Positions 16,405 to 51,361 of a stretch of 54,847 nt of DNA are shown here, piece after piece. The position numbers were made by a program, and so were the translations under genes. Below the pieces are notes generated by a model, which made no database searches, was not told where the DNA came from, and worked only from the letters and a program-made list of their open reading frames with translations. Position 1 is the stretch's first letter. Every line of letters begins with the position of its first letter. The stretch lies in the NCBI RefSeq assembly GCF_003334385.1, contig NZ_QOWN01000031.1; one strand, given 5' to 3'. Origin of the DNA: Escherichia coli (lineage in GTDB: Bacteria; Pseudomonadota; Gammaproteobacteria; Enterobacterales; Enterobacteriaceae).

Positions 16405-16560
16405 AAGCGGATGCGATTTATATCGCATAAGAGTGCAGTACTCATGCCGGATGCGGCATGAGTACCATATCCTTCCTGAAAATCGCGCAAATTCTATATA
16501 TTGCAGAGATCATGTAGGCCTGATAAGCGAAGCGCATCAGGCAATGTTACAAAAAAAGCC
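16405..16560. repeat. REP/palindromic-unit cluster between convergent glxK and allE
   Basis: Palindromes gtactcatgccggatgcggcatgagtac and gcctgataagcgaagcgcatcaggc, plus hairpin gccacggtataaaccgtggc. Confidence 0.6.
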
Positions 16561-16619
16561 ACGGTATAAACCGTGGCAAAATCCAACATAGCTAAAAATA
16601 ATCAGGCGAGTGGTATGAC

Positions 16620-22985: not shown

Positions 22986-23801
22986 ATGACGATCATCCAT
23001 CCTCTGCTTGCCAGTAGTAGCGCACCGAATTATCGCCAGTCCTGGCGGTTAGCGGGAGTGTGGCGACGGGCGATTAACCTGATGACGGAAAGCGGCGAAC
23101 TGTTAACGCTGCATCGTAAGGGTAGTGGTTTCGGCCCCGGAGGATGGGTGCTTCGCCGCGCGCAATTCGATGCGTTATGCGGTGGATTATGCGGCAATGA
23201 ACGACCGCAGGTTGTGGCTCAAGGGATTCGCCTCGGGCGTTTCACGGTTAAACAGCCACAGCGTTATTGTTTGCTGCGTATTACGCCGCCTGCGCATCCT
23301 CAACCGCTTGCAGCTGCATGGATGCAACGCGCGGAGGAAACCGGGCTTTTCGGGCCACTGGCGATGGCGGCAAGCGATCCGCTGCCCGCTGAATTACGCC
23401 AGTTTCGTCACTGTTTTCAGGCCGCGCTCAATGGCGTTAAGACCGACTGGCGGCACTGGCTGGGTAAAGGACCCGGATTAACGCCAAGTCATGATGATAC
23501 GCTGAGCGGAATGCTGCTGGCGGCCTGGTATTATGGCGCTTTAGATGCGCGCTCTGGTCGCCAGTTTTTTGCCTGTTCCGACAATCTTCAACTCGTTACC
23601 ACAGCGGTGAGCGTCAGTTATTTACGCTACGCCGCGCAAGGATATTTCGCCTCGCCACTCCTGCACTTTGTTCATGCTCTGAGTTGCCCGAAACGTACCG
23701 CTGTTGCGATTGATTCGCTGCTGGCGCTGGGGCACACGTCAGGGGCAGATACGCTGCTGGGGTTCTGGCTTGGTCAACAATTATTACAAGGAACACCATG
23801 A
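22986..23801 (+). CDS. ylbF: Conserved protein of the oxamate/carbamate branch
   Basis: Start taken at [11 protein letters not shown] (271 aa); the ORF track extends upstream to 22893, overlapping ylbE. Confidence 0.75.
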
Positions 23802-24691
23802 AAACACTGGTTGTAGCTCTTGGGGGCAACGCCTTACTCCAGCGCGGCGAGGCGCTGACGGCAGAAAATCAATATCGCAATATCGCCAGTGCTGTACCCG
23901 CGCTGGCGCGCCTGGCCCGTTCTTATCGGCTGGCGATTGTTCACGGCAACGGGCCGCAGGTGGGGCTGCTGGCATTGCAGAATCTGGCGTGGAAAGAGGT
24001 AGAACCGTATCCGCTGGATGTGCTGGTGGCGGAAAGCCAGGGGATGATTGGCTATATGCTGGCACAGAGTTTGAGCGCACAGCCGCAGATGCCGCCCGTG
24101 ACGACGGTGCTGACGCGCATTGAGGTTTCGCCTGATGATCCGGCGTTTTTGCAGCCAGAGAAATTTATTGGTCCGGTTTATCAGCCAGAAGAACAAGAGG
24201 CACTGGAAGCGGCTTACGGCTGGCAGATGAAACGTGATGGTAAATATTTGCGCCGGGTGGTGGCGTCTCCGCAACCGCGTAAAATTCTCGACAGCGAAGC
24301 CATCGAGTTGTTGCTCAAAGAGGGGCATGTGGTGATTTGCAGTGGCGGCGGCGGTGTGCCTGTGACGGAAGATGGGGCAGGGAGTGAAGCGGTGATTGAT
24401 AAAGATCTCGCTGCTGCGTTGCTCGCTGAGCAGATTAACGCCGATGGGCTGGTGATCCTCACTGATGCTGATGCGGTATATGAAAACTGGGGAACGCCGC
24501 AGCAACGCGCCATTCGCCATGCCACACCGGATGAGTTAGCGCCATTTGCCAAAGCCGATGGTTCGATGGGGCCGAAGGTAACGGCGGTGAGTGGTTATGT
24601 CAGAAGCCGTGGTAAACCCGCGTGGATTGGGGCGTTATCGCGAATTGAAGAGACGCTGGCGGGCGAAGCGGGGACCTGTATTTCGCTGTAG
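23798..24691 (+). CDS. ybcF: Carbamate kinase-like protein
   Basis: 297-aa ORF with amino-acid kinase family features ([13 protein letters not shown]); synteny. Confidence 0.8.
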
Positions 24692-38097: not shown

Positions 38098-38174
38098 GCG
38101 CCCTTAGCTCAGTTGGATAGAGCAACGACCTTCTAAGTCGTGGGCCGCAGGTTCGAATCCTGCAGGGCGCGCCA
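38098..38174 (+). tRNA. argU: tRNA-Arg (anticodon UCU)
   Basis: 77-nt cloverleaf sequence gcgcccttagctcagttggatagagcaacgaccttctaagtcgtgggccgcaggttcgaatcctgcagggcgcgcca, anticodon loop cuUCUaa, encoded CCA end. Confidence 0.95.
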
Positions 38175-38189
38175 TTACAATTCAATCAG

Positions 38190-39353
38190 TTACGCCTTCT
38201 TTATATCCTCCATAATTCCAGAGTGGGACATATTTGGGACATTATCACCAAAAATGTCGTCTATTTTCCTCGCATGCTCTGTCAAATGATTAGGCGCAAG
38301 GTGAGCATACCTACGAACCATTTCTATGGACTCCCATCCGCCCATTTCCTGAAGCACTGATAATGGGACGCCTGACTGAATCAGCCAGCTTGCCCAGGTG
38401 TGTCTGAGGTCATGGAAACGGAAATCTTCAATTCCTGCACGACGACAAGCTGATAGCCATGATGTCTTGCTGTCGATGCGCATCTTCCTGACCGCAGGCG
38501 TTGATGTTCCATCTGCTCGCTTAGCCGCCTTGGTATGTACAAACACCCATTTGTGATGCTTGCCTATTTGATCACGCAACACTTTACAGGCGGTATCGTT
38601 CAGCGCCACACCAATGGCGCGGTTTGATTTGCTCTCTTCTGGATTCACCCAGGCAACTCGTCGCTGCATGTCGATTTGTTGCCATTCCAGATTTATGATG
38701 TTCGACTTTCTCAGACCAGTTGCCAGCGCAAACTTGACGACAGATTTCAGTGGTTCGGGGCACTCATCAATAAGGCGTTTTGCTTCCTCCTTTTCCAGCC
38801 ATCTGACTCGCTTGTTTCTGACCGCTGGTATCTTGATGACAGGCGCTTTTTCCAGCCACTTCCAGTCGCGTTCTGCAGCACGGAGAATGGCCTTTATCAT
38901 GGCAAGATGCTTTGCCTTTGTCTGAGTTGATACTGGCTTTGGTTCATAAACAGGCGGTTCTTTACCTTTCCTGATGGCGGCCTGAACTTTCTGTTTCCAT
39001 ATTTCTTTCGTCTTTCTGTTATGCATTCTGCTTACAGCAGAGTAAATCTTTGCCTCCGAGATATCTTTAAGCCTTATACCCTCAAAATGTTCAAGCCAGA
39101 ACTCAATCCGGCTTTTATCTGAATCGAGAGATTTTTTATCAGCTTTTTCCTCAAGCCATCTTAGGCAGGCCTCTTCAAAAGTGACATCAGGTAAATCCCC
39201 TAGCTTTTCTACTCGCCAGAGTTCTGCTTTTCGCTTGTCGTGCAACTCCTGAGCTTGCCGCTTGTCCTTTGTGCCAAGAGATTCCTTAATTCGTTTCCCG
39301 CCCGGGAGCGAATACGAGGCATACCATATTTCATTTCTGCGGAAGAGTGACAT
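38190..39353 (-). CDS. intD: Phage tyrosine integrase
   Basis: 387-aa [36 protein letters not shown] with C-terminal catalytic HxxR...Y region; adjacent to the tRNA. Confidence 0.9.
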
Positions 39354-43035: not shown

Positions 43036-43446
43036 TTAGTGATTCAGGCCGTTACCGCGTCCGTCGAGAAAAACTTCCACGAGCAAATCACGGGTATAAG
43101 TGCGCTCGATGCCGCGATGCAGATAAAGCCGTCCGCGTAAATTAGCTGATGCTGTCCAGGTACCATCTTTGTGTTTGACCAGCATTCCTGGCATGACCGC
43201 GCCGCGATTAACGGTCTGCGTTCCGTAATGTTGATGAACCATAAAAACTCCTGCCCGTAAGCTGGGCTGCTGAACATATAGAGACTTCTGCGCGTATTCA
43301 GGCGGTGGATGGCCGCCGGTTGTCATAACTAAGCCGCCTCGTTGAAGCGACTGAGGTATGAAATGTTGAGTTAATTTCAGCTGGTCACACCGACGTTCAC
43401 GCGTCCGTTTCACCCCTCGCACTCCCCGAAGCCTGCTGAAATTCAA
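43036..43446 (-). CDS. First gene downstream of the putative pL; arginine-rich N-terminus, possible N-like antiterminator or kil/cIII-position protein
   Basis: 136-aa ORF; N-terminal RLRGVRGVKRTRERR resembles an arginine-rich RNA-binding motif; position relative to OL/pL. Confidence 0.35.
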   Translation of the reverse strand: MNFSRLRGVRGVKRTRERRCDQLKLTQHFIPQSLQRGGLVMTTGGHPPPEYAQKSLYVQQPSLRAGVFMVHQHYGTQTVNRGAVMPGMLVKHKDGTWTASANLRGRLYLHRGIERTYTRDLLVEVFLDGRGNGLNH

Positions 43447-43463
43447 ACTGCGGATCTAAGCGG

Positions 43464-43515
43464 TCATCGCAACGGTGAATCAGGTAGTTGCCGTATCGTT
43501 GTGTTGTTGCGATGA
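43464..43515. promoter_or_regulatory. 10-bp perfect inverted repeat in the leader between the putative pL and the first early-left gene
   Basis: tcatcgcaac (43464-43473) and gttgcgatga (43506-43515) separated by 32 nt. Confidence 0.35.
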
Positions 43516-43519
43516 ACTT

Positions 43520-43600
43520 ATTTAAAACTATAGTTGTTTTATCGTCAACAACAAAAGTTGTTTTATTGGTTGTTTTAGATATAACTGGTTGTATTTAGGA
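43520..43600 (-). promoter_or_regulatory. Putative OL/pL: leftward promoter embedded in GTTGTT/AACAAC operator half-sites
   Basis: Minus-strand gttgTTGACGataaaacaactatagttTTAAAT is a near copy of the pR-side sequence; palindrome aacaacaaaagttgtt at 43555-43570. Confidence 0.5.
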
Positions 43601-43677
43601 TGGATTTATTTTGTGACTTGCATCGCACAGCGATAACTGAAGCGAGGTCGTGGTGGTTTTTTGAACTGTTTGTGTGA

Positions 43678-43705
43678 TGAGGGGAGGCAAAAGAAAACCC
43701 GGCAC
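43678..43705 (-). terminator. Rho-independent terminator ending the cI-defence-candidate transcript
   Basis: Minus strand cccggccgtcgtgccggg stem-loop (6-bp GC stem) followed by ttttctttt, 15 nt after the stop of the 287-aa ORF. Confidence 0.6.
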
Positions 43706-43719
43706 GACGGCCGGGGAAA

Positions 43720-44583
43720 TCATTTCGCATCTACAATAAATAACCTGTTTATCTGGCCTTTTTTAACAGTAGCCTTTGCGGTTATAGTGAATACTGCAGA
43801 TGGATCACCTTTGGTTGATATATATGCACTAAGAGCTCTAATATACGGGTTATTCTTCTTTCCTGCAGCTGGATCGCTAATTTCAGCAGTGATTCTCTTT
43901 TTTGAGTCATCACCATCTAAAATTATTTTAGCTGTCATATTTTGTGCATCAAATTCTGTAAGAAAAGCACGATACTCACGAAGACCGAGAACTTCATCAT
44001 CATCAAGCCTATCAATTTCAGCTTTATCTCTCTCGTTAACTTTTAGAAGGCAGCCGTCAACATTTGTTGCAACACTTATCTGATCGCAAGTATTACCAAT
44101 AGGTGATACTGCCTGCCTTACAGAGGGGCGAAGCTCTACAGCCATTCGGTCAATCAAAGAGATCAACTTATCAATGGTTCCAGCATCCTTGTTTCCCAGT
44201 GCCTCTATGGCCTTTTCAAGTGACTGCTGCAAAGCTTTCATTTCATCTTTCTTGTTAGAATTTCTCGCAAAAATATATTGTAGTATTGCGCCAAGTATAG
44301 TTGCGGCGATCCCCGAGAACAACTGGTTCTGAGTGGCGAAGTTAAGAACTGCTTCAAGAGTAAAGCAGTTAGCTTTTGCTTCGCGTGCGTAAACCTTAAC
44401 TTCCTGATAATTAATGTATTTACTATATTTTTGTGTAACAGAGAAAGAAGCTGCTGTTGAGAGAACTTTAGAAAAACCCTTTAGGGATTCTCCTAGGCAG
44501 TTCAAATCTATTTCATGATTTAAAGCATCTTTTCCGTCATACCTAAGAGAGATTTTTATATCCTGTAAAGCGTCACAATCCAT
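43720..44583 (-). CDS. Unknown-function 287-aa protein at the rexAB-equivalent immunity-region locus; candidate lysogen-expressed anti-phage/superinfection-exclusion protein
   Basis: Directly downstream of and co-oriented with the cI-like repressor; visibly AT-rich versus flanks; central hydrophobic segment [19 protein letters not shown]; followed by an intrinsic terminator; no motif I can assign. Confidence 0.55.
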
Positions 44584-44649
44584 AAATCGCTCTCGTCTAA
44601 TTCTAATTAAATTTACTATCCCCTAAACGACTCATCAGCACAGTACTGA

Positions 44650-45339
44650 TTATCCATGTTTCCTGTACGTCTGGGGCATGCTCCCAATAACCTTACCGAA
44701 GATGAACACACGGTTCATCTCGTCTTTCTCGATCGGGTCCCACGGTGAGTAGCTCTTGTTATCAGAGATAACCAGCAGCTTATCCTTCATCATTTGCAGG
44801 CGCTTTACATGGGCTGTGTCGTCGTACAGAAACGCATAGATACCATCACCGTCGAAAGATTTAACCGTGATATCAACGAACAGCAGATCACCTGGTTCGA
44901 TCGTTCCTGACATGCTGTCACCACGCACGTTAATGATGCGGATATTTTCCGCCTTCCTACCATCGAACATGTGACGAGCATCGTCAAACGAGTACTCAAC
45001 CGAGCGTAGAACTTCTACAAACTCACGGTTGATGACTCCCGGCCCAGCACTGACTTCTATATCAAGAACGTCAATCTTGAAGTATTTGGAATGGCTGACA
45101 GTTGATTGTATTGGTTGCACTGTACTGTCTGACATATTTCCAACGCCAGAAGATAACCATTCTGCGCGCACACCCAAAGCGTTCGCGATCTCCACGATTT
45201 TAGTTGTTTGATTAGCTTTCCCTGTTTCGATTTTCTGAATAGCAGCCTGGCTAACCCCGACCAAATCCCCAAGCGCCTTTTGTGTAAGGCCTCGCGCTAA
45301 TCTGGCTTCTTTAAGTCTTTCTGAGAGTGTTGTTTTCAT
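44650..45339 (-). CDS. cI-like prophage repressor (HTH plus S24 LexA-like autopeptidase domain)
   Basis: Start taken at MKTTLSERLKEARLARGLTQKALGDLVGVSQAAIQKIETG (XRE HTH); C-terminal domain with GDSM motif (NVRGDSMSGTIEPGD) and a downstream lysine (HVKRLQ); divergent from cro. Confidence 0.8.
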   Translation of the reverse strand: MKTTLSERLKEARLARGLTQKALGDLVGVSQAAIQKIETGKANQTTKIVEIANALGVRAEWLSSGVGNMSDSTVQPIQSTVSHSKYFKIDVLDIEVSAGPGVINREFVEVLRSVEYSFDDARHMFDGRKAENIRIINVRGDSMSGTIEPGDLLFVDITVKSFDGDGIYAFLYDDTAHVKRLQMMKDKLLVISDNKSYSPWDPIEKDEMNRVFIFGKVIGSMPQTYRKHG

Positions 45340-45443
45340 AGTCCAAATGTACAACCAAGGTTTTATTCCATCAAACGAAAATGGTTGTTGACTAAAAACA
45401 ACCATAGTTTTAATCTTGATTCAAATTAACCACGGAGGTTGTT
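45340..45443. promoter_or_regulatory. Putative OR region with pR (and presumably pRM) between cI and cro
   Basis: Palindrome ATGGTTGTTgactaaaAACAACCAT (45381-45405); TTGACT (45388-45393), 17-nt spacer, TAATCT (45411-45416); additional GGTTGTT/AACAACC half-sites at about 45350 and 45437. Confidence 0.6.
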
Positions 45444-50718: not shown

Positions 50719-50905
50719 CTTGATTGATTTTCCATAATCAACCCGCCATAATCATGTCATCGGAGCCTGAACAACTCCGGTGACTTCTGCGCTAAACGGG
50801 GACGTTTATGCGCATATACAATCCAAACTCTCTTCTCCCTTCACAGATGCAGAAATGCACCTGCGTTTTTTTGCATCCAACGTTTGACCTCTGCGGAGGT
50901 GAAGC

Positions 50906-51361
50906 GTGAACCTCCCACAAGACGGTATCAAATTGCATCGCGGTAACTTCACCGCTATCGGTCAGCAGATCCAGCCTTATCTGGAGGACGGAAAATGCTT
51001 TCGCATGGTGCTTAAACCGTGGCGTGAGAAACGCAGTCTTTCCCAGAATGCACTCAGCCACATGTGGTACAGCGAAATCAGTGAATACCTCATCAGCAGG
51101 GGTAAAACGTTCGCCACTCCAGCTTGGGTAAAAGATGCTCTCAAACACACATATCTCGGTTATGAAACCAAAGACTTGGTTGATGTCGTAACCGGTGAGA
51201 TCACCACTATCCAGTCGTTACGCCATACCTCCGATCTTGATACCGGAGAGATGTATATCTTCCTGTGTAAGGTTGAAGCCTGGGCGGTGAATATTGGCTG
51301 CCACCTGACTATTCCGCAGAGCTGCGAGTTCCAGCTGCTCCGCGACAAACAGGAGGAGTAA
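50906..51361 (+). CDS. ybcN: DLP12-type NinB-position protein (DNA base-flipping protein)
   Basis: 151-aa translation [50 protein letters not shown] matches K-12 YbcN as I recall it; GTG start with GGAGG ribosome-binding site. Confidence 0.8.

Follow-up and report, generated by a model that had tools for sequence, protein, structure and literature searches.

The window analysed here is a stretch of 54,847 nucleotides of Escherichia coli DNA (NCBI RefSeq assembly GCF_003334385.1, contig NZ_QOWN01000031.1) that runs from host chromosome to a tRNA gene (38098–38171, +) and an integrase-sized open reading frame (38190–39353), followed by a lambdoid early region; the tRNA gene beside the integrase-sized frame probably marks the attachment site of the prophage. 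The prophage functions then follow in the order exo, bet, gam and kil (minus strand), a left control element, a cargo gene, cI, a right control element, the Cro gene, a YdaT-domain gene, O and P. The genes cI (−) and cro (+) diverge from an intergenic region of 104 bp. The subject of this work is the pair of short paralogous elements that flank the immunity region, the left one beyond the cargo gene and the right one between cI and cro, together with the repressor sites among which they lie.

Both elements had been pointed out in a sequence-only reading of the window as near-identical strings of about 33 bp in divergent orientation, and both strings are indeed present in the sequence; the position given for the right element (45384–45416, +) is exact, whereas the left one lies at 43520–43552 (−), 5 nt to the left of the 43525–43557 originally given. 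The −35-like hexamers (TTGACG and TTGACT) and the AACAAC/GTTGTT words attributed to them are there as well. Global alignment gives 31 identities in 33–34 columns with one indel in each element, local alignment extends the paralogy over ~115 nt, and a 19-nt inverted repeat (95% complementary) joins the left and right sites. The motif search suggested by that reading gave a mixed result: the spaced pattern GTTGTT-N6-9-AACAAC matches only twice in the 54.8-kb window, both times in the paired elements (0 of 100 shuffles), whereas the window shows no enrichment of the 7-mer GGTTGTT taken alone (10 observed vs 7.4 expected). The position of the elements beside cI and cro, the hexamers kept in related phages, and the joint exchange of both elements in a heteroimmune relative described below support the proposed reading, in which they form the core parts of early promoters that diverge and have paralogous operators (pL/OL and pR/OR). 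From sequence comparison we are therefore confident that the pair represents the two early promoters, leftward and rightward, of a lambda-like prophage, and that each of them lies within a set of predicted 14-bp repressor sites of the 434 type.

The conserved unit in both regions is a 14-bp pseudo-palindrome, A[C/A]AAC[C/T]A·T[A/G]GTT[G/T]T, composed of two ACAAC-type half-sites with a 4-bp gap. For the pattern A[C/A]AAC-N4-GTT[G/T]T the window contains five exact matches, four of them in OL and OR (at 43524, 43548, 45351 and 45398); OR2 (45375–45388) fits the 14-bp pattern with two mismatches. The sites are regularly arranged, with spacings of 23 and 24 bp among the three sites of OR and of 24 bp between the two firm sites of OL. 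Each control region has several such sites and not the single operator assumed at the outset. OR3 ends exactly 11 nt before the cI ATG in the phage of the window and in the three relatives introduced below.

Several comparisons bear on this unit. Relatives were found by tblastn with the cI DNA-binding domain and chosen on repressor similarity (a protein search with the N-terminal domain of cI returned mostly fragments); they are phages of Klebsiella (L084), Salmonella (L085) and Erwinia (L087) whose cI DNA-binding domains are 74%, 61% and 61% identical to that of the window and keep the recognition helix VSQA(A/N)IQK. All three carry three 14-mers at equal distances from the cI ATG, despite diverged surrounding DNA, and an OL pair spaced 24 bp apart downstream of cI. 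The OR2 14-mer is identical in the Klebsiella phage, and its counterpart in the Erwinia phage is ACAACTATCTTCGT. When a weight matrix was built solely from the nine OR sites of the three relatives, OR1, OR3, OL1 and OL2 of the window were the top four of its ~55,000 positions and OR2 was sixth; the same matrix recovers the OL pair in each relative, although OL sites were not used in training, and finds no site cluster in a heteroimmune control. Across 40 half-sites, A1 and A4 are invariant (40/40), A3 (36/40), C5 (37/40) and A7 (32/40) are strongly preferred, position 2 is C in 26 of the 40 and A in 13, and position 6 is C or T. The gap inside the 14-mers is always 4 bp long, and its bases are variable and polymorphic.

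Natural variation follows the same partition. The 80 viral-contig loci available all encode a 100% identical cI, and are thus uninformative on divergence; they were used instead, with phage loci, as a polymorphism set of 82 loci encoding identical cI. In this set 2 of 50 half-site positions vary, compared with 7 of 20 central and 38 of 174 flanking positions (Fisher p ~ 0.001), and one of the two variable half-site positions is an artefact of homopolymer alignment. Within OR1 and OL1, natural variants are confined to the central 4 bp; OL2 shows no variation in 73 loci. Coordinates, sequences and matrix scores are collected in Table 1.

Table 1. Features of the immunity region, with positions in the window; promoters, operators and half-sites are predicted, and scores are those of the matrix built from the relatives.
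Feature	Position	Strand	Placement and evidence
Right paralogous element, pR core, GTTGTTGACTAAAAACAACCATAGTTTTAATCT	45384–45416	+	sequence; −35 TTGACT, −10 TAATCT
Left paralogous element, pL core (−35 to −10) with OL1 and the edge of OL2, GTTGTTGACGATAAAACAACTATAGTTTTAAAT	43520–43552	−	sequence; 31/33 identical to 45384–45416
OR1, ACAACCATAGTTTT	45398–45411		between pR −35 and −10, touching −10; score 19.8, top of window
OR2, ACGAAAATGGTTGT (reverse complement ACAACCATTTTCGT)	45375–45388		adjoins PRM −35, overlaps pR −35 by 1 nt; score 13.4, sixth in window
OR3, ACAACCAAGGTTTT	45351–45364		covers PRM −10 and spacer; score 19.2, second in window; register same in relatives
OL1, AAAACTATAGTTGT (reverse complement ACAACTATAGTTTT)	43524–43537		between pL −35 and −10; score 18.8, third in window
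OL2, ACAACAAAAGTTGT	43548–43561		adjoins pL −35; score 16.2, fourth in window
Candidate OL3 (reverse complement ACAACCAGTTATAT)	43579–43592		one good half-site, ACAACC, 31 bp from OL2
Additional isolated half-site, TGGTTGT	43567–43573	+	between OL2 and candidate OL3; variant inside it (ACAGC) in two loci
pR (predicted)	−35 TTGACT 45388–45393; −10 TAATCT 45411–45416	+	17-nt spacer; TATTCT, TATATT or TATAAT at the −10 position in relatives
pL −35 (predicted), TTGACG	43543–43548	−	TTGAC(G/T/A/A) at equal position beside OL2 in window, L084, L085 and L087
pL −10 (predicted), TTAAAT	43520–43525	−	17-nt spacer; TTAAAT or TTTAAT at equal position in four phages
PRM −35 (predicted), TTGATG	45369–45374	−	directly adjoins OR2; TTG invariant in four phages; 17-nt spacer
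PRM −10 (predicted), TACATT	45346–45351	−	TA..TT hexamer at equal position in four phages
cI-type repressor, 229 amino acids	44650–45339	−	Pfam HTH_3 (9–62) and Peptidase_S24 (95–218); phrog_4, E 6e-73
Cro-type (YdaS-like) lytic repressor, 76 amino acids	45444–45674	+	phrog_35, E 1.5e-27
YdaT-domain protein at the CII position, 179 amino acids	45744–46283	+	phrog_163 (CII-like activator), E 4e-67; RefSeq 'toxin YdaT domain-containing protein'
Cargo gene, 287 amino acids, DUF7946 + DUF7947	43720–44583	−	Pfam; phrog_5147; G+C content ~39%
Terminator-like hairpin closing the cI–cargo transcription unit	43698–43715	−	six G–C pairs then a T-run; conserved in Perceval
OL cassette replaced in Perceval	43512–43600		identity drop vs Perceval

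Exchange between phages provides evidence that both regions belong to one repressor. In the heteroimmune phage Perceval the flanks on both sides of OL are 90–100% identical to the window, and identity falls to 40–65% across 43512–43600; the OL core, OR, the N-terminal domain of cI and cro are all replaced together, and the OL and OR of Perceval have in common a different word, AATAGCAA..GTATT. This joint replacement means that both elements travel with the repressor. What is observed directly is how the sequence is laid out, that it is conserved and co-varies with the repressor, and to which families the proteins belong.

The long palindrome GGTTGTT-N7-AACAACC that first draws the eye (45383–45403, with a counterpart at 43533–43552) could in principle itself be a single operator lying over each −35 hexamer; in the OR of the window its inverted repeat is perfect, each arm being 9 bp long (ATGGTTGTT/AACAACCAT), and, as noted above, its spaced core is unique to OL and OR. 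We nevertheless consider this improbable, for the GTTGT and ACAAC cores are separated by 9 bp in the OR but by 10 bp in the OL of one phage, and by 10 bp in OR of the Erwinia phage, a variability that is hard to reconcile with a rigid dimer and that differs from the constant 4-bp gap within the 14-mers; a T-run in the spacer even differs by 1 nt in length in 2 of the 82 loci with identical cI. One arm is lost (AACAC) in OR of the Salmonella phage, the palindrome leaves the conserved sites at 45351–45364 and the second OL site unexplained, and domains of the 434 type bind sites of 14 bp. Since OR2 sits midway between the OR3 and OR1 matches, at spacings of 23 and 24 bp, the palindrome is read here as the right half of OR2 joined to the left half of OR1, and would on that reading be a by-product of two neighbouring sites. 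The core word GTTGT had been read correctly beforehand, and the specificity is to that extent approximately readable from the DNA, but the GGTTGTT-spaced palindrome is most probably not the binding unit. The same palindrome has also been flagged as terminator-like on both strands (−10.8 kcal/mol, z = −3.85), so that, instead of being bound by a protein, it might fold into a hairpin in RNA or DNA and resemble a terminator acting in both directions between cI and cro. This reading was rejected and retains next to no likelihood: the hairpin is stable here but is not conserved, falling to −2.8 kcal/mol in the Klebsiella phage and giving way to a different, non-significant fold in the Salmonella phage, and the main transcripts would not contain it because it lies upstream of the predicted pR and PRM starts.

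Operators of lambda size are very unlikely too. The pattern AAAAC-N7-GTTTT (45395–45411 and 43524–43540) spans 17 bp, the length of a lambda operator, and its two perfect matches and one single-mismatch match are all in OL and OR; however, the outer AAAAC is not kept in the relatives (AATAC, ATAAC, GATAC), in which the inner ACAAC is, and the 17-bp site was rejected on this ground. OR3 and OR2 moreover fit it poorly, and overall the pattern is only weakly enriched (7 observed vs 3.2 expected). Phage early promoters are often alike, and the two elements could resemble each other only because their promoters have a common origin, or because pL and pR underwent recent gene conversion, and need then have no repressor in common. 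We give this little credence as well, for the conserved positions are the ACAAC/GTTGT pentamers and extend beyond the promoter hexamers, further sites are found beyond the cores of the promoters (OR3, and OL2 on the upstream side of the −35), and OL and OR are swapped together with the repressor domain in the heteroimmune phage.

Several observations nonetheless weigh against the assignment of these 14-bp sites to cI. The outer half of OR2 is poor (TTCGT), and OR2 is outranked by a site in host DNA at 23801; candidate OL3 is only a half-site, and is weak and uncertain because its matrix score lies below 8.2, although an ACAACC half-site upstream of OL2 recurs at 31–32 bp in the window, L084 and L085 and at 41 bp in L087. 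The promoter hexamers are non-consensus, and neither pR nor pL is called by a simple promoter scan, which misses them because their −10 hexamers are weak. Part of the conservation reflects shared ancestry, since it was by repressor similarity that the four phages were picked, and since the polymorphic loci are close relatives of one another. Finally, the Yersinia phage YP3 (L086), whose helix VSQGAIQK is nearly identical, has no ACAAC sites in the 48-bp region upstream of its cI (2444–2491), so that helix similarity alone does not predict the sites. As a separate observation, the YP3 operator may have been altered either by the Ala-to-Gly change in the helix or by a different genome architecture.

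Two further sequences resemble the unit. The 14-mer AAAACACTGGTTGT in host DNA (23801–23814, +) is an exact match to the operator pattern with a matrix score of 14.8; it is probably a chance occurrence, as the score lies within the range of the best sites in shuffled sequence (mean 13.9). A fourth OR site over the cro ribosome-binding site (45429–45442) was considered and rejected, its score of 9.9 being within chance (5.5 hits of at least 10 are expected per shuffled window); conservation at this position is attributed to translation signals and not to a fourth operator.

The repressor contains Ala98-Gly99, and its Ser142 (GDSM) and Lys179 (VKRL) align with the catalytic dyad of UmuD. The closest solved structure to its DNA-binding domain is the 434 repressor (1PER/2OR1), which aligns without gaps over residues 5–67 (E 7.6e-10). 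The Cro protein is 80, 68 and 63% identical in the three phages with the same operators and 46% identical in heteroimmune Perceval, and its helix VSQQAVYKW has an S-Q-x-A start in common with the cI helix. By analogy with lambda and 434, on which expectations of binding, order of occupancy, activation and looping are modelled, dimers of cI (a 434-type helix-turn-helix joined to an S24 self-cleaving domain) would bind the 14-bp sites and thereby shut off pL and pR in the lysogen. They would stimulate PRM, the promoter of cI, from OR2 and at high concentration repress it from OR3, and repression would be lifted when cI, stimulated by RecA, cleaves itself at Ala98-Gly99; in lytic growth the same sites would be used by the YdaS-type Cro. 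With the predicted PRM start at 45339, the centre of OR2 lies ~42 bp and that of OR3 ~18 bp upstream, and because the PRM −10 hexamer is only 6 nt before the cI ATG, a leaderless cI mRNA is implied.

The arrangement is that of a textbook lambdoid switch and is most like that of phage 434. A comparison with known lambdoid operators, also proposed at the outset, shows that the 14-bp layout of 434 is the closest, although the sequence itself is not that of 434, lambda or CP-933P. Phage 434 (2OR1, 1RPE, 1PER) provides the closest solved DNA-binding domain, in a repressor that has an S24 C-terminal domain as here. According to a curated record its operators are also 14 bp long, with outer ACAA (ACAA-N6-TTGT) and a variable A/T-rich centre, and its spacings (22 and 23 bp in OR, 23 bp for OL2–OL1 and 31 bp for OL3–OL2) are close to those found here (23 and 24, 24, and 31 bp for candidate OL3); in both phages the three OR sites are set roughly two helical turns apart, with 1 bp more between sites here than in 434. 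The central bases of 434 operators are read indirectly (PMC3317979), which fits the polymorphic A/T-rich centre seen here. The two systems differ in the recognition helix, which is S-Q-A-A-I-Q-K here and T-Q-Q-S-I-E-Q in 434, and in position 5 of the half-site, which is C in 37 of 40 cases here and G, T or A in 434; position 2 here tolerates A. The difference in helix fits both the different fifth base and heteroimmunity, and these sequences lead one to expect heteroimmunity between the phage and 434. Unlike 434, moreover, cI is apparently leaderless (the annotated 434 PRM leader has 18 nt with a ribosome-binding site), Cro is of the YdaS type, a YdaT-domain protein occupies the cII position, and neither an N gene nor a nut site is present.

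In lambda, divergent PRM and pR promoters are associated with three operators, cI is leaderless, the repressor is cleaved in the SOS response, and a paralogous OL lies across cI and rexAB. The centres of OR2 and OR3 relative to the predicted PRM start recall this arrangement, as does a paralogous OL on the far side of cI and a cargo slot, at a distance of 1.9 kb. Lambda differs, however, in that its sites are 17 bp long and unrelated in sequence, its cI belongs to another N-terminal fold family with an N-terminal arm, and neither its Cro nor its CII is related to the proteins of the present system. CP-933P of E. coli O157:H7 has a lambdoid-type switch with a YdaS-type Cro, YdaT in place of CII and sets of OR and OL sites, and is similar to the present system also in the identical hexamers of its PR and PL and in a leaderless repressor gene (PMC8630535, PMC9986795). 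Its operator word GTTTAGTAA, which occurs in 18-bp repeats (PMC8630535), is unrelated to the ACAAC/GTTGT found here, and its repressor PaaR2 heads a toxin-antitoxin operon (paaR2-paaA2-parE2), in contrast to the S24 cI type of this prophage.

The cI–OR–cro module is widespread, being present in 1,517 of 5,426 complete E. coli genomes (at least 80% query coverage) and in six deposited phages, including PhiR5_1 and PhiR34_1. The phages PhiR47_2 and Turner likewise carry this cI, in contrast to Perceval and 4A7, whose cI is different. No earlier description of the operator sequence was found in the literature searched, a search that lay outside most subscription journals, and the sequence thus appears to be undescribed, though the switch itself is an ordinary phage immunity switch. 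We lean, by a little, towards the view that this immunity specificity is experimentally uncharacterised and yet among the commonest in E. coli, with a naturally occurring variant of the 434-type repressor (helix Q-A-A-I-Q-K) that recognises ACAAC[C/T]A in place of ACAA[G/T], an early left operon without N, and, between cI and OL, a cargo slot that varies greatly. If so, the system would provide a natural series of specificity swaps for the 434 recognition code, in which the Klebsiella, Salmonella and Erwinia members combine the same operators with diverged proteins. The understanding of lambdoid switches is unchanged; what is added is a sequence-level map of operators, promoters and probable repressor contacts for a module found in about a quarter of sequenced E. 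coli and in several newly isolated lambdoid phages, which may be of use in predicting superinfection immunity between prophages, in annotating prophage control regions and in engineering.

Between cI and OL lies a hotspot for cargo genes, and the stretch that separates the cI stop from OL comes in at least seven size classes (284–1894 nt in 73 loci with identical cI); cargos annotated at this position in relatives include HipA/HipD, GevT/GevA and RexA/RexB, or there is none. The DUF7946 + DUF7947 gene of the window has a weak PADLOC match to PDC-S42 (E 1.5e-4) and is a candidate for a defence or exclusion gene expressed from the prophage. On the other side of OL, no N-like open reading frame is found between pL and kil (43326–43520, −). 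The pL leader of ~190 nt has no significant fold (z = −0.6), no nut- or put-like paralogue of it lies to the right of cro, and the region has no Rfam match; an N gene is not required for the assignment of the operators.

To the right of cro, the YdaT-domain protein has no similarity to solved chains detectable by phmmer. A perfect TTGATT-N6-AATCAA palindrome, identical to the consensus of the CP-933P YdaT operator, occurs at 50724–50741, after an open reading frame of 169 amino acids and before one of 151 amino acids (50906–51361) judged by eye to be NinB-like, and a copy with two mismatches lies at 45416–45433, between the pR −10 hexamer and the cro ribosome-binding site; across the window the motif is not enriched (5 observed vs 4.1 expected). 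In the host part of the window, Rfam matches to the enterobacterial small RNAs ES036 and STnc480 are located at 16479–16613 (+).

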